Program-made: the position numbers and the translations under genes
NCBI GenBank assembly: GCA_951406725.2
Contig: OX597824.1
Coordinates: 58,404,001 to 58,468,000 of the forward strand
From: Octopus vulgaris
Taxonomy: Eukaryota
DNA: 64,000 bases
Direction of reading: 5' to 3'
Shown: in pieces, positions 954-63,788 of the stretch
How the letters are laid out: every line of letters begins with the position of its first letter
Numbering within the stretch: position 1 is the stretch's first letter
The notes under the pieces: model-generated
Told to the model about the DNA's origin: nothing
The model's input: the letters and a program-made list of their open reading frames with translations, nothing else
Database searches by the model: none

Positions 954-954
<1 letters not shown>

Positions 955-1348
955 TAGCAGTATCGCCCGGCGTTGCTCGGGTTTGTAAGGGAAATAATTA
1001 TATAAGCATTTTTAGAGATGTAAAGTATAATAGCCATCTCAATATGGCTAACCACAAAGAGGGAGGGATGTTACTGTAGCTTTTTACGTTCTGAGATTTA
1101 ATAATACATTTTAGAGAGTTACTTCCCTTATATATGTCAAAAATGGATTAAAAATGGGAAAAATTGATGGTAAATTTTTTTTTAAATCGTAGACTCATCG
1201 TAGACGCGCGCTAATACCCAGACGGTCTCGATATGAATCACGACTATAAGATACCCGGTTTTGGTTAAACTGCACCGCAAAATGTGGGAGTAGTTAGGAA
1301 TCTAAATCGTAGGAGACAGACACACAACCTCACTTTTATATATAAAGA
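954..1348 (-). mobile_element. Non-autonomous Helitron
   Basis: Minus strand starts TC-TTTATATATAAAA and ends CCCGAGCAACGCCGGG hairpin ... CTAG; inserted between A and T with no TSD. Confidence 0.75.
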
Positions 1349-1448
1349 TTTCCTCTATTTACATAATATTGAGGTCTCTTTCTTTCTTTTGTTATCTTAC
1401 TGTTTTTACCAATATACATATATATATATATATATAAATATATATATA

Positions 1449-1770
1449 GTTACAGAGATGTACTTGCATAGCAAGTGACTTGATCTGAGATCGTGTGCTG
1501 GAACGAAAACAGTTGCAGCGTTGAAGGTGTTTATAAGCCATTTAAGAAACACACAAAAACCGTTAGATTCACTTCAACATTTAAATTAAATTTGTCAAAA
1601 TATTTTCGTCGCTTTGAGACCGCGACCTGTTAGCACGATATTTTTGTCAGTGAACAGGTCGCGGTCTCAAAGCGACGAAAATATTTTGGCAAATTAAATT
1701 TAAATGTTGAAGTGAATGTAACGGTTTTTGTGTGTTTCTTAAATGGCTTACAAACACCTTCCACGCTGCA
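1449..1770. mobile_element. Fold-back (long inverted repeat) element between (TA)n tracts, carrying a hammerhead-like motif
   Basis: Arms ~1513-1631 and ~1653-1770 are near-perfect reverse complements; (TA)n on both sides. Confidence 0.75.
1643..1693 (+). ncRNA. Type-I hammerhead-like motif, G3:C8 core variant
   Basis: Stem I TTTGTCA/TGGCAAA; core GTGAACA plus extra G; stem II GTCGC/GCGAC; GAAA; palindromic stem III AATATT; UUU triplet. Confidence 0.6.
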
Positions 1771-1849
1771 ATATATATATACACACATATATATATATGT
1801 ATGTATGTATGTATGTGTGTATATGTGTATGCATATATGTGTGTGTGTG

Positions 1850-2070
1850 TGCGTGTCTGTGCTTGTGATTGTCCTCCACCACTGCTTGACAACGAATGTT
1901 GGTTTGTTTACATCCCTGTCACCTAGTGGTTTGACAAAGGAATCAGATAGAATAAGTACAATGCTTACAAAAATAAAACTGGAGTTGATTCATTAAACTA
2001 CAATTCTTCAAGGCATTGCCCCAGCATGGCCACAGAGCAATGGCTGGAAAAAGCAGAAGAATAAAAGAAT
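1850..2070 (+). mobile_element. 3' half of a CORE-type tRNA SINE
   Basis: Matches the 3' part of the copy at 20352-20782 (gcttgacaac...ccagcatggccacag...aaaagaat). Confidence 0.7.
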
Positions 2071-2071
2071 T

Positions 2072-2259
2072 GAGGGGGACCTCTACATGGTAGCTAGACC
2101 TGGTAGAAATAGCAGCAAAATTTCCCCCAAATCACACCTTACTGTCTTATCTATGTATATATGTATGTATGAGCCTATGAGGGAGACCCCTACATGGCAG
2201 CTAGACATGGTAGAAATAGCAGCCAAATCTCCCTCAAATCACACCTTACTGTCTTATCT
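2072..2259. repeat. Direct tandem duplication of an ~80 bp repeat fragment
   Basis: gagggggacctctacatgg...cttactgtcttatct occurs at ~2072-2152 and ~2179-2259. Confidence 0.75.
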
Positions 2260-2559
2260 TTCTGCTACTTGGATATAGGTGTTATATTCGTCTAAAAAAA
2301 CTTTCCTGTCACACACTCACGCACACGCACACACACACACACACACACACACGCACCGTCACACACACACACACGCGCACACACACACACACACACTCAC
2401 ACACACGCACGTTAGCTTACAATTTTATTTATATATTTGCGTGTGTATGTGTGGAAAGAAGAAGTGGGAGGCAGAGTGAAAGAATCACTCACTACAGTAA
2501 GTGAATTACTTTCGTTTTATTCGTTGCCCACTGTGTGTGTGCGTTTGCGTGTGGTGTAA

Positions 2560-2776
2560 ACCAGACTAAGAAAAGCATTTGACACACACACCAGAATGTG
2601 AGTTTTCTGTAAATTTTGCTTAATTGGAGTTTAAATTTTAAAAACTGGACCTGGCATGACGCGATGCATTGTACTCTTAAAACTGCTAGGTAAATTGTAA
2701 TTGAAGAAATCCTATATTGTAGATTTGTATAACTCCCAAAGGGAGGCAGATAAAATCTGCCTTTTATAATAAGAGA
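2560..2776 (-). mobile_element. Helitron-like 5' end fragment
   Basis: Minus strand starts TCTCTTATTATAAAAGGCAG, like the other Helitron 5' ends here; no 3' CTAG found; left boundary uncertain. Confidence 0.4.
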
Positions 2777-3175: not shown

Positions 3176-3836
3176 CCGTGTTTTCCCGAAAATAAGACCT
3201 AGTGTTAAAAGCATCAGCTTGTTAGCAAGGCCATGTTTGCAAAATAAACCAGCTACTGCAGCTTGGTTAATGTCTGCTCTAAGCACATATGCACGGATTT
3301 GACTTCCTTGGCGTGACTCACTCGTCCCCGAGGCAAGATGAGTGCAAAAAGAAAAGAGTTATTCCGTGGAGTACAAGAAAGGAATTGTGGAAGAGTCACA
3401 TAACAAGAATCTTACGGCTTTCTGTAAGGAGGTATTGGATCTCCAAATGGTTCCAAAATGGCGAGCAGAGTGCGATACTCTCAGCAAACAGGTGGATGAG
3501 GGAAGTGCTAAGAAGCGCAATGTGGATCATGTCGACAACCGTTATTTTCGGAGCTGGAATATACCACCTCAGGATGGATTACTGACAGAAGAACAAAGGC
3601 TTTGGTTATACGCAGAGTTTATTCAAGAATTTGCTCATGCAAAGGCACTACAGTTGGATATACCCCCAGAGATATTCAAAGCATCACTTAATTGGTTCGA
3701 TAACTTCCTTCGGTGATATGGGCTTTCTCTAAGAAGATCAACAACACTGTTCAAGCTGGCGGATGCTGAAGTGATTCAACGTGCACTTGCATTGAAGTCC
3801 TTCGTTGATGGCATCAACTTTTCTAAATACAATCAC

Positions 3837-4432: not shown

Positions 4433-5080
4433 CAATAATACAACAGTTTCAAATTTTGACACAAGGCCAACAATTTTGGGCAGGGTGCAAGTCGATTACA
4501 TCGACCCCCGAAAGAATGAAAGGCAATGTCGACCTCGGCGGAATTCGAGCTCAGAACGTAGCGGTAGACGAAACACTGCTAAGCATTTCACCCGGAGTGC
4601 TAAAGATTCTGCTTGTTCACCGCCTTGATAATGATAATAATAATCCTGTCTAATAAAGGCACAAGGCCTGAAATTTTGGGGGAGGGGACAAGTCGATTAT
4701 ATGACCCCAGTGCGTAAATGGTACTTAATTTATCGACCCCGAAAGGATGAAAGGCAAAGTCGACCTCAGTGGAATTTGAACTCAGAACGTAACGGCAGAC
4801 GAAATACCACTAAGCATTTCGCTCGGCGTGCTAACGATTCTGCCATCTCGACGCCTTAATGATAATAATAATCATTTCAATTATGGGCACTAGGCCTGAA
4901 GTTTGGGGGAAGGGTTCAAGTCACAGTACTGAACTGGTACTTAATTTATCGAACCCAAAAGGATGAAAGGCAAAGTTGACCTCGGCGGAATTTGAACTCA
5001 GAACGTAGCGACGGGCAAAATGCTGCTAAGCATTTTTCTAGTGTGCTAATAGTTCTGCCAGCTCACTGCCTTAATAATAA
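4433..5080 (-). mobile_element. Three head-to-tail tRNA-derived SINEs joined by (TAA)n
   Basis: Three ~210 bp copies of ggcgagctggcagaatcgttagc...gagttcaaattcc...gcctttcatcctttcggggtcgat...aggccttgtg on the minus strand, with a B-box-like GAGTTCAAATTCC. Confidence 0.85.
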
Positions 5081-7194
5081 TTATAGAAAAAAAAAAAATA
5101 ATAATAATGATAATGATGATAGTAGGTGACGATGATGGAAGTCATAATCGTTATGACAACAAGAATACGTGGAAGATATATTTTTCAAATATCGTTTGTT
5201 CAAAACAGAAAGCGCGCACACACACGCACACACACATCTACAATTACAGCCTACAATTGCCATACCACAGCTAATTAAAGAAATTTAAAGTTGTATATGT
5301 GTATATTTTTGCATGAAAATGTGTGTGTGCCTGTGTGAAGCGTTTGGGTGAATACCAAAAGCCAGACAATATATGTCTGGCTATTGATTAATATGTCCGC
5401 GTATTATGACACTTCCTTCTATGACTGAAGCATATGATACACATTTTTTTCCTATTTCTCGCTCCCTTTTTCTCCACATACTCACGTAGAAAGACATAAA
5501 TGCTTATAGTGCGCATGTGTCTGGAGTTAAGATATTTGTGCATGTATACAAGTATATAATTTTAGGTATCTTGAACACCTCTTCTTCTTGCGGGTAATAA
5601 ATAGATTTTGGTTTCTAATTCTGCAAAGAAAGACTTAAAATTATTTTTGTTGCCACAATAAACGCGAAAATTCTTGTTTTCGTTTATTGATCCGGTGTTA
5701 GCTTAGATTGAAGAAACACAGCTAGGTCGAAACATTGCAATGTCTCAAGTTCCATGCAGTTCAATGAATCAAGCGTGTTGTGAATATAGACTGCCTGAAT
5801 GTTGTGTTCGGCAGACAGAATACAACAACGATTAGCATATTCGCTTTCGAATCTGACGGAACGTAAGAAAAAATTGATGTGCGCGTCATTCTTCCAATCC
5901 TCGCTATTCTCTGTGCACATAACGATTTATGATTTATGCTGTCTTCTCTTGTTTATGCATACGATATGTTATAAATGGAAGTGAGATTGCGGTATTGTAA
6001 AGTAGTTCTTGATTATACACACTTGAGATATAATGAAATTCCACCCTCCAAATACTTTGCTGACACCCAGTATGGGGACAATGATAGAATCTTGATGGTT
6101 ACCAGTGAATTCTTCAATACATTACTCTGAGATAGCTTTCTCTTTATTGTCATGCGGAAGTGGTATAAGTATTCCCCATTCTGCGTCAAACTGTCTTCTA
6201 TGGTGTCTTCTATGGTGTATGGCGACCCTCTCAATAATTGGTATTTGATTTGTATGAATATCAGTAAATCATCTATTATTGTGGCTGAGTCCAACTTCGT
6301 TCCATTGCAAATCTAAGTTGATCTCGAGAGGACAGTAATAAAACCAACGACACCAAACACGAGTTGCTGTACCTTATCTACGTAATCATGGTCGAGAACA
6401 TGGAATTTTCCAAGTCATTAACTTCAATCAGCGATATTGACCGTCCTTGCTCTCTCTCCCCTTCTATTTCACTCTGTATCTCACCCGCCCCCACCTTTCA
6501 CCCATTCTCTAAAAGAAGTATTAATGACACGAATGGCTAGTGTCTTAAATAGCAAAACACAACTTCATTCTACCGTATACTCAAATCGGCCTACAAACTG
6601 CCAATCACCTCGGTGAATCGAAACCGAGGTTATTGACAGATATCAAATGTTAATTTAAATAATCTGAAATTTTCCTGTTTCACAACAATTATCTCTTCCC
6701 TTGTAACACCTGTAAGATTTCTATTTTGAAGGAATATCAACTGCGCGTTGGTGTCGGAAGTATAACGAATTTAGAATAGCATATCATTAGCCCTGGTTAT
6801 AATAAGAAGTTTTTGCCACAACTATCAGTATGCATGGTTTTGCAGCTCCAACGGCAAATGAGACATCACTCTCTCTTCTCATATTTAGTTCCATCAACAA
6901 AATCACTCCCAATATGTCTATCACGTCTCCCAGTCAAGATCAGACCACTGTAGGGATCAGAAGCAACACATTAGTAGAATGGCTGCGTTGTTTGATGGAG
7001 CAATTGACAACAATATCCGGAGTATTGAATCCAAGAAGATTACAAATTATAATCTATTTTAAATAAGGACTTCGAAACCAGCTAATTTTCATAAGTGATA
7101 ACAATAAATGCAATACAATATACAGCTTCCTCTATACCTTTGTACACTTACATATGTGTATATGTGTGTATATATGTGTACGTATGCATGTATG

Positions 7195-30337: not shown

Positions 30338-32855
<2,518 letters not shown>

Positions 32856-32869
32856 TATAATAATTTTTT

Positions 32870-35800
32870 TAAATCTCAGGCCTTGTTGGAACTCCTGGAG
32901 TCTTGCATGCATAGAGGGCTTGCTACCTGCTGCCTACGGTACCATGATATCCGTTCTTTTCAGCTATCTAATACTTTCCTGGTTATTCTGGCCGTACCAA
33001 GAAGGGAAACCTTTTGTAACAGTTCTATTGGGCACTCCATTCCAATTACTTTTATATTTCTCTTGATGCCTTCTGATGCTGTCCCCAAGTACCGAACAAT
33101 AATTGGCACTATCTTCACCCACTTCATTTTCCATAACCGGGCTATTTCGTACATAAGAAGGTTGTATTTGTCTATATTTTCGCCTTCCCTCTTGACTATT
33201 CGTGGGTCAAAGGGGCATACAACGTCAACTATATAGCACAGGTGGTGCATCTTGTCCACCACTACTAGGTCCGCTCTGTTATGCTCTAGCACTTGATCTG
33301 TTTGGATTGTACTGATCTGTAGTTTGTACTCATATCACGTCTTGACTCTCTCTGGTCCCTACTTTTCGCAGTTTCCAGAGTAGCACTTTCGTTACCTGAT
33401 GATGTCGCCACAACTTGTAATGGTTTTGGGCAAGTCTAGGGCATTCGTTTGTGATATGGACAATAGTTTCATCCACTCTATTACAGATGCGGCACAGCGG
33501 AGACACTTGCTCAGTCCTAAGGTTGGCCCTCCATTTTGTAGCCAAAGCTTGGGCTTGCGCTGCCATTATAGTGCTCTTAGTCTCTTTTATTAGTGTTCCT
33601 TTCTTCAGCATCTTCTGTTGTGGCTACATGGAATTGATTGTGTAGTCCCTTGTGTAATTCTTCTTCGTGTCCTTTTTGTACTTCTTCCTTTGTTTTTCTT
33701 TTTCCTCTGCTTTCAATACTTCCTCATACCTGACACTAGCAAGGTTTCCTTACTTTGGGCTAGGTATCTCATTAAACTCCCGAGTTCGATGCGCACGCAG
33801 TCTTCCACACTTATCAGTCCCCTTCCTCCGTTTGCTCTCTTCGTGTAAAGGCGACCAGTGTCTGCACGTGGATGAGGGGCTCCATGCATCGTTAGAAGAT
33901 TTCTTGCTGTTCATCTCCTTTAGCTCCTCCTCCGTCCACTTCAGGATTCCAGCGCCATACCGAACTACTGTGACTATGTGCGAGTTCATTGCCAAAATTA
34001 TGTTTCTGACACGTGGTCTTGCGTCGAATCCTGCTGTGCGAGAGCTTGGGTATTTTTTACTATAGACCCGAGCCGACCAAAGAATTGTGAGTGAATATGG
34101 TAGATGGAAACTGAAAGAAGCCCGTCTATATGTGTGAGCCTTTGGCTTGACAACTTGGTTTGTTTACGTCCACGTAACATAGATGATCGACAAAGAATTT
34201 CCATGCTTAAAAAATGAATACTGGGGTCGGTTAGCATGGCTCCAGTCTATTGCCTGAAACAAAGAAAAGATATAAAAACATAAAAGGTACTCTCTTTTTG
34301 TCTTTTCTTTCATGCCGTTGTGCTTAATTCCATCTGCTTCAAGCATTCCCAGGTATTTATAGCTGGATTGAGGTTAAATTGCCTTCATCATTTCACCACT
34401 TGGCCACCATATACCTTCTGTCCTGACAGGCTTTCCTCGTCTCATCATCATCGTAACACAAATTGAGAGTCGAAACTCCATCTTAATATCACTGGAGAAA
34501 ATCTACACAGACTTGTATAGACTGTCCAGTTCTGCGTCCCATTTTGTGAATAACTTCAAGCTAGGTGCTGCTCGTTCCTTCAACCACTCATCTAGCTGTT
34601 TCGCTATCCTTTCATGGAGCCCTCTCAGCTTCTTCATCCAATAATCCTGGACCCCATCTGGTCCAGGCCTTCTCCAATTTGGGTATTTTAACTTCTTTTT
34701 TATCATTTCTCTAGTTATTTAGATGTGTTCTTAGCCTTCTCTGTTTCTTAACCTATCTTGTATTTCATGCAGCCACTACGCTTCATCATTATGTTCAACA
34801 GGTTGGTCCCAGATCCCTCTCCGGAATGCCTTGCCCATCTAGTTCCTGAAACTGTTTATTCTGATTTGTTTCAAACCATCTGCTTTGCCTAAATTGTTTT
34901 ATTCTATTGTCATATCTTTCCAATTTTGCTTTGATTACTACTGCTCTTTGTTTCATTTCATTTCTTCCTTCATCGCTTATTCTATATGTTCTTTCCAGCA
35001 TTATTCTTATATTTTCGTTCTGTACTTCCCCTCTACTCATCTATCAACTTGTCCTAAATGTCTTTTTAACGTTGTTTCTAACAAATTCGTCTACGTTCTG
35101 TTTGTTCTCTTTTTTTGTATCCAACTCTGTCTACAGCAGCCATAGCTGCAGCCCAAATATTCTTGTTAGTTTCAGTTGTATTTCTCGTCTGGATTAGCCC
35201 AAGGACCGAATCTTTTTGGCTTCAACTTTGAGCTAGCATTGATCAATGTACCTCAGATTGGTGGGTGCTTGATCCTGGTCTTCTCTAATATATCGGTACA
35301 GCATCCTCTCTGTCTTGTTCATCATCACCGTGTACTTGTGATATACCTCTTCCCATTACTTCTGCTTCATTTACTGAGAATGAGTTTACATTTACCCATT
35401 GCTTTACGTCTTCCCTGCCGCCATTCATTTCCCTGTCCTCGTGGGTTCGTTACCTGTTAGCGAAGTATTATTTCTATTTTCTACTTTCCTGTTTATCTCT
35501 GCAGTTTCGATGTCTGTTAACCACCTTTTTGATCTTATTTATCTTGCCTGGTCGGCTAGCCGTTGCTCAGTTATTTCGACGAGTCCTATTTCATTCAATT
35601 TTGCTTTCATGCATTGTCGGAATCCCTTTCTACTGGGTTCATCCCTGATCCAGCATTCAATTACCGTTCCGTTTGCCTCCTTATCCCACCTTCTTCTCTG
35701 CCTTTGACTTTGTGTGTAAGCAGTCTCTGGATGACGACCGGGCCTGCGCTTCTCAACCATAGGGCACCTGCCGGGCGAAAGGCTTTCACTTTTGGTTCCA

Positions 35801-62499: not shown

Positions 62500-63788
62500 C
62501 GAGGGGCGTTCAATAAGTAATGCCTCTGACCCACTTGCAGTTGTTTGATCTAGCTGAAATTTTGCATGTGCAATTATTTATATCTCTATAGATTAAGTGG
62601 CAAATTACAGCTCTGAACTAATTGTGGTTTCCGATTTACAGGTGTTTGAACTGAGTCAAGTGTGAAATGGAGCATGTTGAGTGTCGAACAGTGATCCGGT
62701 TTTTGTATTTGAAAGGACGCACACCACGGGAGGCTTTTGATGAAATGAAAGTAACTTATGGTGATGATGCCCCATCATATGACCTTGTAAAACGCTGGCA
62801 TCGTGAATTCAAACATGGTCGGAACTCTGTGGAAACAGCTCCCAGATCTGGTCGCCCTCTTCTGCCATTGATGAGGCATCTGTCTGTCAAGTTGAGGCTG
62901 CCATTTTGGAAGATCGATGCATAACTATTCGCCAAATAGCCCATGAGGTCAAGATTAGTACCGGGTCTGTGGAAACTATCATTCATGACCATTTGCATAT
63001 GCAAAAGGTGTCTGCCAGATGGATTCCCAGGCTGCTCACACCTTTTCAGAAGCAAGAACGCATCGATTGCTCGAGGATGAATTTGGAGATGTGCCAAGAT
63101 GAGTCAAAATTTTTCAAAAGACTGATTGCATAGGATAAAACCTGGGTCCATCACTATGATCCAGAGACCAAAGCCCAATCAATGCAGTGGAAGCACCGTG
63201 ACTTACCTCCTCCAAAGAAGGCAAGGGTGCAGCCCTCCGCTGGCAAGGTCATGCTTACAGTCTTCTGGGACCAGGAGGGGGTAGTGAAGACAGATTTCCT
63301 GGCAAAGGGTGCCACAATTATAGGAGTCTATTATGCTTCACTTTTGAGGAAATTAAGAGAAGCTATCAAAATCAAGAAGCGGGGCAAGATCAGCAAAGGC
63401 ATCCTCCTCCTGCAGGACAACGCTCCGGTCCACAACTCGCGTGTCGCCAGATCAGAAGCACAGGCGTGCGGCTATGAACTCATCTCCCATCCCCCCTACT
63501 CTCTTGACCTTGCACCCTCTGATTTTCACCTCTCCCCAGCCATGAAGTTGTTTTTGAAAGGAAAGCGTTTCCCAGATGATGCAGCCTTGATTTCTGAAGT
63601 CACGTCGTGGTTGGAGGACCAAGCTGGGGTCTTCTACAAAAACGGTCTTCAGAGCTGCATCAAACGATGGGAGAAATGCGTAACTCTGGGTGGTTCCTAT
63701 GTAGAAAAAGACTAATAACTGTTCCAAGTTTCGTTGCTCTACTGCTATGGGAAGTGGGTCAGGGGCATTACTTATTGAACGCCCCTCG
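62500..63788 (+). mobile_element. Full-length mariner (DD34D) transposon, 1289 bp
   Basis: 37 bp TIRs CGAGGGGCGTTCAATAAGTAATGCC(T/C)CTGACCCACTT with 1 mismatch; TA duplication at 62498-62499 and 63789-63790. Confidence 0.95.
62667..63715 (+). pseudogene. Mariner transposase pseudogene
   Basis: RSGRP, WIPRLL, DKTWVHHYDP, LQDNAPVH, HPPYSLDLAPSDF; one frameshift near 62860 and a TAG at 63131-63133. Confidence 0.92.

Follow-up and report, generated by a model that had tools for sequence, protein, structure and literature searches.

Penelope-like elements (PLEs) carry minimal hammerhead ribozymes in their pLTRs, with an additional nucleotide that separates position 9 from 10.1, and pairs of such motifs on opposite strands lie 100–700 bp apart (PMC4209133). 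Insertions of EN+ PLEs have been described that are tailed on one side and accompanied by an inverted copy truncated at its 5' end, and a Cys linker is present in two of their groups, Neptune and Nematis (Craig et al. 2021, PMC8557442). The only natural covariant of the hammerhead 3:8 pair named in the accessible text of PMC3088659 and PMC4209133 is U3-A8, and in that of PMC3884650 G3-C8 is mentioned only as an engineered pair.

The locus described here lies in a window of 64,000 nucleotides (the whole stretch of Octopus vulgaris DNA that was analysed). Its hammerhead motif resembles the minimal hammerheads of PLEs in being of type I, with an extra nucleotide at 9/10.1, a G10.1-C11.1 pair and a short palindromic helix III, and also in its pLTR site, beside a putative intron end in longer copies, and its occurrence mostly as solo or opposite-strand remnants (PMC4209133). 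It differs from the published consensus (CUGANGAH) in having the core GUGAACA, that is G3:C8, and in its longer stem I (7 bp). The same swapped 3:8 pair has been engineered into hammerheads as C3G/G8C (Frangieh et al. 2024, PMC11167929; PMC8495972), but in the octopus it occurs naturally, as the fixed state of a family that has more than 6,000 genomic matches. The source family is like the EN+ PLEs of PMC8557442 in its RT followed by a C-terminal GIY-YIG, its CX3CxxC linker, inverted copies set head to head, insertion into (TA)n and two alternative 3' ends, although these ends are ~63 nt apart rather than 30–40, and the octopus stub has no ORF and has been amplified secondarily by a DNA transposon. 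That transposon shares with the composite Helitrons of PMC6431247 an autonomous 5' end, captured cargo, the 3' signal of a downstream Helitron and tandem arrays, while its cargo is a ribozyme-bearing PLE fold-back with old repeats instead of host exons. Metazoan non-LTR retrozymes (bioRxiv 10.64898/2026.07.22.740005) are likewise non-coding, PLE-derived and equipped with type I hammerheads, but they are built of head-to-tail tandem units, in contrast to a head-to-head stub spread by a Helitron. A retrozyme assignment was rejected for this locus, where a lone head-to-head stub has just one complete motif and head-to-tail units are absent.

With a probability of about 0.88, the locus is a head-to-head pair of truncated PLE pLTRs with a G3:C8 motif, lying within a young non-autonomous Helitron of at least 628 copies, in which it is likely to be inert cargo. 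The one element that may be new is the family-wide G3:C8 core; the rest consists of known parts.

The palindrome and the hammerhead motif

The features of the locus are collected in Table 1. The palindrome of ~260 bp in the original prediction was confirmed by measurement: two arms of 119 nt (1513–1631 and 1653–1771), with 5 mismatches, flank a spacer of 21 nt, for a total of 259 bp. The wider stretch 1449–1770 has a predicted folding energy of -204.9 kcal/mol (z -26.8), and none of 100 shuffled sequences folded equally well. Of this stretch, the palindrome takes in only 1513–1770 (it ends at 1771), and 1450–1512 is the unpaired, longer 3' end of the left copy, which extends to the long 3' end of the PLE family. 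A TA run shorter than the tract at 1417–1448 follows at 1772–1779. The left arm does hold an antisense hammerhead copy, as proposed, but its core was not disrupted by mutation. This copy begins at A6 (1631) and is without the 5' strand of stem I and N3–G5, so that these parts were never present there. The right copy begins past an intron-like 3' splice site.

Table 1. Coordinates of the features of the palindrome and its carrier within the window.
Feature	Position	Strand	Basis
Fold-back palindrome, 119-bp arms, 21-nt spacer	1513..1771		Inverted-repeat comparison, folding, descriptor scan
Left, inverted pLTR copy of PLE, 5'-truncated at A6 of hammerhead	1450..1631	-	182-nt match to family unit
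Right pLTR copy	1632..1771	+	From ~18 nt upstream of core to short family 3' end
(TA)n tract, PLE target	1417..1448		Sequence; TA-rich flanks common around family copies
Minimal type I hammerhead (candidate), G3:C8 core, palindromic stem III	1643..1693	+	Descriptor, isolated fold, same motif after PLE ORF
Young composite non-autonomous Helitron, 1,823 bp, carrying the palindrome	954..2776	-	Common to 30/30 loci
Stand-alone-type mini-Helitron, 395 bp, source of 3' hairpin and CTAG terminator	954..1348	-	13 matches end at its own inner 5' end
Helitron 5' end common to autonomous RepHel elements	2507..2776	-	96–98% identity
Old dispersed repeat captured in Helitron	1851..2070		7 other matches, 67–80%, in window
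107-bp tandem repeat	2071..2259		Copy number varies between Helitron copies, unit ~1.8–2.3 kb

A hammerhead descriptor finds a single match on the two strands of the 64-kb window, at 1643–1693 (+). Stem I (1643–1649/1687–1693) has 7 bp including one G-U, and the core from G3 to A9 (1650–1656) is followed by an extra G1657 before G10.1. Stem II (1658–1662/1672–1676) has 5 bp, G12–A14 occupy 1677–1679, and stem III is the palindromic AAUAUU (1680–1685), with H17 at U1686 and the predicted cut 3' of this nucleotide. All required positions are present (U4, G5, A6, N7, A9, G12, A13, A14, A15.1-U16.1 and H17), and so is a Watson-Crick pair at 3:8, as G3:C8 and not with the canonical C3:G8 identity. 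The complete right-arm fold that had been predicted, with its three stems, GUGAACA core, extra G and G3:C8 pair, was therefore recovered in full by the descriptor. Folded alone, 1640–1695 is predicted to form stems I and II with pair probabilities of 0.70–1.0, and a two-molecule MFE fold, a result of low information, returned no dimer hammerhead. A search against Rfam gave no family at the gathering score and no hammerhead among 73 weak matches; the best match, a miRNA hairpin with a score below the cut-off, was discarded as spurious. Judged by its sequence, 1643–1693 is a hammerhead motif.

For 99 of the 151 candidate frames in the window and the 10 kb before it, the only domains recovered were those of LINE RT and transposases, and no host gene appeared among them. 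The window holds a fragmented LINE at 30939–33623 (-; RVT_1, E 2.6e-25, plus two zf-RVT pieces), a mariner-type Transposase_1 fragment at 63134–63712 (+; E 6.3e-23) and three diverged direct repeats, ~220–230 bp apart, at 4449–5091. A broken frame at 3283–3800 has no Pfam match; inspected by eye, it looks like a pogo/Tigger-type DNA-binding region.

The Penelope-like family that carries the motif

A 44-mer with the stem I allele of the other arm has 515 exact copies in the genome, and none of the 30 that were examined is located in the Helitron. From these copies a unit of ~210 nt can be defined, which has two preferred 3' ends and often sits within TA tracts. From 141 scored RT matches, 13 close loci and 7 sister-family loci (~55% identity) were examined. 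The unit lies ~1 kb downstream of an ORF with RT and EN, on the same strand, in 12 of the 13 close loci and in none of the 7 sister loci. The G3:C8 motif was recognized by the descriptor at 11 of the 13, as well as at loci L118 and L127. Since it stands downstream of an RT and GIY-YIG ORF on the same strand, the motif is taken to be the pLTR hammerhead of an EN+ PLE family in the Octopus vulgaris genome.

The family has long open ORFs. Pfam identifies GIY-YIG (E 1.8e-5) and no other family on the full ORF; it gave no family on separate RT and EN fragments and none on the sister-family ORF. The RT assignment comes from motifs and homolog labels, as RVT_1 has no match on the query ORF, and among named homologs the best one carries the label Octopus vulgaris. 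The ORF of one locus (L164) has a CX3CxxC linker that fits the CX2-5CxxC before the endonuclease by which Neptune is recognized (PMC8557442), and the family is probably Neptune-like, a placement made by this motif and not by a tree. Longer copies have a branch-point-like, a pyrimidine-rich and a YAG sequence just upstream of the motif, all absent from the window copy.

Fold-backs are common in the family. BLAST comparisons reveal them in 26 of 57 distinct stub loci, or 23 of 55 independent ones once two double-counted insertions and one distant 20-nt match are set aside, and inverted EN or pLTR copies adjoin several ORF-bearing PLEs. The palindrome is best read as a head-to-head PLE insertion of the usual kind, with a 5'-truncated left copy. 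From its anatomy, a single insertion into (TA)n would have left the short copy and an inverted, 5'-truncated one, forming the fold-back.

Three further loci or groups of loci are of separate interest. A direct tandem of four G3:C8 hammerheads, ~100 bp apart and retrozyme-like, occurs at L129:4759-5110 (G000:C2), and such an array could allow dimer cleavage in cis. At L110 (G000:C2:10486500-10496499) two hammerhead units lie 4.27 kb apart with similar upstream flanks; it was considered as a full PLE and rejected as a local duplication, having no ORF of 200 aa or more. In a very young sister PLE family (L174, L175, L176; ORFs up to 1,312 aa) the commonest hammerhead is CUGAUGC, where position 9 is C and not A, and stem III is less self-complementary.

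The G3:C8 core

When positions N3, N7 and N8 were left open, the first 100 listed of 1,472 matches included 96 with G3:C8 and none with C3:G8. GTGAACA is thus conserved across copies, as the original prediction would have it, and represents the state of the family. At the matching place after the ORF, the sister family has C3:G8 in all three loci inspected. On a stem II scaffold shared by these families, the genome as a whole has 6,269 matches with G3:C8, 5,129 with C3:G8, 279 with G3:G8 and 70 with C3:C8, so that 97% of the 11,747 are G:C or C:G and 349 are mismatched; a reversed-pattern control gave no match for any of the four combinations. Between PLE families, G-C changes to A-U in stem II, and the sequence of stem I differs with pairing kept, while the young and old subfamilies differ only in loop II. 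We read G3:C8 as a family state, in which the 3:8 pair covaries with sister families. This covariation goes back to a single ancestral event or a small number of them, passed on to many copies, and not to thousands of independent ones, so the counts demonstrate a compensated swap and not its frequency.

The mismatches are unequal, G3:G8 being about four times as frequent as C3:C8. Twenty of the 279 G3:G8 copies were compared, and they are mixed across subfamilies and form no single clade, which bears on the idea of an ancestral intermediate. The excess could stem from a mutational hot spot or from an amplified lineage with a broken core, and together with the scatter it might mean that the PLE family is able to spread with a broken core.

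It is possible, at somewhat less than even odds, that the PLE family has fixed a natural G3:C8 in an active, dimer-dependent hammerhead, present at more than 6,000 sites beside its C3:G8 sisters. The swapped pair would retain the tertiary 3:8 contact, which places the 2'-OH at residue 8, probably the general acid (PMC6155905), and the motif in full-length tandem PLE transcripts would cleave slowly as a dimer, by way of the palindromic stem III. Engineered C3G/G8C swaps restore cleavage in part, including that of a PLE hammerhead (PMC11167929; PMC8495972). This partial rescue may also be cited for a motif that is catalytically dead even in the parent PLE and kept by descent or for another role, such as a promoter, splice context or protein binding. 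Consistent with a dead motif are the low activity of minimal motifs (PMC4209133), the insertion of PLEs in vitro unimpaired by hammerhead mutants (PMC11167929), the excess of G3:G8 copies and the UUU cut triplet. We nevertheless consider it unlikely, because selection on an active fold is suggested by a compensated double change that falls exactly on the tertiary pair, while the stems are maintained and loop II alone varies freely between subfamilies.

The literature covered contained neither a natural G3:C8 hammerhead nor a PLE hammerhead carried by a Helitron, although specialist work on PLE hammerhead variants, among others, may already report G3:C8.

The Helitron carrier

Helitrons have a 5' TC and a 3' CTRR terminus, and insert between A and T. 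A genome search with 1636–1771 gave 864 candidates, and the 40 that were scored were all 100% identical. All 30 loci examined also share the flanks, from ~950 to ~2790, and outside the search probe this flanking DNA is 97.8–100% identical in the 30 copies. In eight 20-kb comparisons, the DNA beyond the unit is unrelated, except for further copies and other dispersed repeats. Read on the minus strand, the 5' end (2776) falls between A and TC in 26 of the 29 loci with both ends, the other three abutting the CTAG of an upstream Helitron, and the 3' end (954) falls between CTAG and T in 28 of the 29. A GC-rich subterminal hairpin folds ~12 nt before the 3' end. The 5' ends of three elements (L233, L234 and L246), which have Helitron_like_N ORFs of 959–1351 aa, are 96–98% identical to the 270 nt at 2507–2776; these are the 3 of 20 examined RepHel loci in which the 5' 150 nt match at 96–98%, and a similar 3' hairpin with CTAG is present at most of the 20. 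By its termini, its 3' hairpin and the 5' end shared with RepHel, the unit 954–2776 is a Helitron. Neither this carrier nor the PLE origin formed part of the original prediction. The captured repeat at 1851–2070 we take to be SINE-like.

The 3' part of the unit is a mini-Helitron that also occurs alone, with 13 matches, 80–94% identical, in the examined loci. A 5' end shared with RepHel and a 3' end from a downstream mini-Helitron fit the origin by terminator bypass described for composite non-autonomous Helitrons (PMC6431247). In the proposed sequence of events, a Helitron 5' end would have skipped the terminator that belonged to it, continued across ~1.1 kb of flanking DNA with the PLE stub in it, and ended at the hairpin and CTAG of the downstream mini-Helitron; the composite element would then have been amplified in trans by RepHel. 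A donor locus from before the capture was not found.

The fold-back junction itself has 628 exact copies in the genome. Long inverted arms, many copies and TA flanks would suit a palindrome that forms a DNA transposon in its own right, MITE-like or of the fold-back type, its arms being the terminal inverted repeats. We give this almost no credence, since the palindrome arms are unequal pieces of a PLE pLTR and Helitron-internal flanks surround all 40 copies chosen by the junction, as well as the 30 top copies, which means that the palindrome does not move alone. The composite Helitron also forms head-to-tail tandems and local clusters (L040/L041, L044/L045, L018/L019). A change of C11.1 to G at 1676 is shared by 11 of the 40 copies (L290–L329; a subclade) and a loop II change by 8 of the 40; both could serve as markers for dating the Helitron burst.

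Ribozyme, hairpin and double-stranded RNA

A transcript that toggles between active hammerhead and long dsRNA had also been proposed, as a built-in switch. Each of the two folds can be drawn, this copy has kept an intact core, and 1640–1695 alone folds as a hammerhead. An RNA switch has two folds of comparable energy and a conserved function, and the locus has neither. The best fold that keeps the hammerhead reaches -129.6 kcal/mol and the hairpin -191.5, a predicted difference of 61.9 kcal/mol (all energies being nearest-neighbour predictions for RNA free of proteins and tertiary contacts). When transcription is followed from 1513, the predicted hairpin has closed once 1660 is reached, at which point stem II has yet to be made, and the probability of stem II is 0.0 at every length; as few as 10 nt of the left arm are enough to remove the ribozyme fold. 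For stem III a dimer partner is required, and the truncation of the window copy has removed the splice site through which a transcript free of the arm could arise. The G10.1-C11.1 pair is broken by the shared change in 11 of the 40 cargo copies, and 12 of the 40 are changed at an essential ribozyme position. Counting only positions outside the search pattern, and including shared changes, the 40 junction-selected copies have 19/1120 changes in the ribozyme (1.7%) against 37/3045 in the rest of the arm (1.2%; Fisher p 0.23). All 86 arm changes in these copies are one-sided, none of them being mirrored in the opposite arm. The pattern suggests that nothing points to selection on ribozyme or hairpin, with low power among copies that are 98–99% identical. 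On these predictions and comparisons, we regard a conformational switch as very improbable and do not uphold that part of the original prediction.

A read-through transcript is predicted to snap into the 119-bp hairpin before the ribozyme folds, which would make it a possible ADAR substrate and not an active ribozyme or a switch. The octopus lineage is known for heavy RNA editing. Four runs presumed to be RNA, with contigs from other individuals that are without information on starts, ends, strand or level, were compared with the palindrome. Ten A>G/T>C sites are represented by 208, 188 and 120 contigs in the group of X17, X18 and X20 against 15 in X15, while 13 C>T/G>A sites are even, with 202, 158 and 113 contigs against 228 in X15, the fourth run; the A>G/T>C sites were chosen after the fact, among the rows listed, and four sites that are genomically variable, or apparently so, were left out. 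The seven mirrored positions behind the ten sites are changed in no more than 3 of ~140 PLE copies of the genome and in none of ~76 Helitron arms, and across 227 genomic arm copies the sites selected hardly vary. This is a hint of A-to-I editing of pLTR transcripts of the PLE family (window 1449–1771). Helitron-specific alleles lie at 1522, 1718 and 1751; G at 1718 makes up ~0.5–7% of the depth, and depth over the junction is low. With such a small share of Helitron-specific alleles, the signal cannot be assigned to this Helitron and more likely comes from ordinary PLE copies. The proposed ADAR substrate thus stays plausible, with a weak hint at the level of the family.

A wider role can be envisaged, in which the hairpin spread by the Helitron is a functional source of dsRNA, as a substrate of ADAR or a precursor of endo-siRNA, by which the parent PLE is silenced in trans. 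Near-perfect hairpins of 119 bp, at least 628 in number, share homology with the pLTR, in a family whose ORFs are long and open, and A>G/T>C sites are enriched in three of the four RNA-like runs where C>T/G>A sites are even. We consider such a role improbable: the runs are RNA by guess, their contigs are from other individuals and the sites were picked afterwards, Helitron-specific alleles are minor in depth, and the arms decay without compensation. The same hairpin carried as probably inert cargo of the Helitron is the reading that we retain.

Significance

The locus itself is ordinary repeat debris. As a whole, it provides a clean case in which one class of transposon amplifies the fold-back of another, seeding at least 628 long hairpins. 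The wider interest lies in the natural covariation at the catalytic 3:8 pair, where PLE sister families offer a matched comparison of G3:C8 and C3:G8 that bears on whether hammerhead cleavage in PLEs is under selection. The G3:C8 motif is missed by standard descriptors and by Rfam. If an active G3:C8 hammerhead is true of this family, such ribozymes would have been missed by searches based on CUGANGA, and the number of hammerheads in animals would be underestimated.
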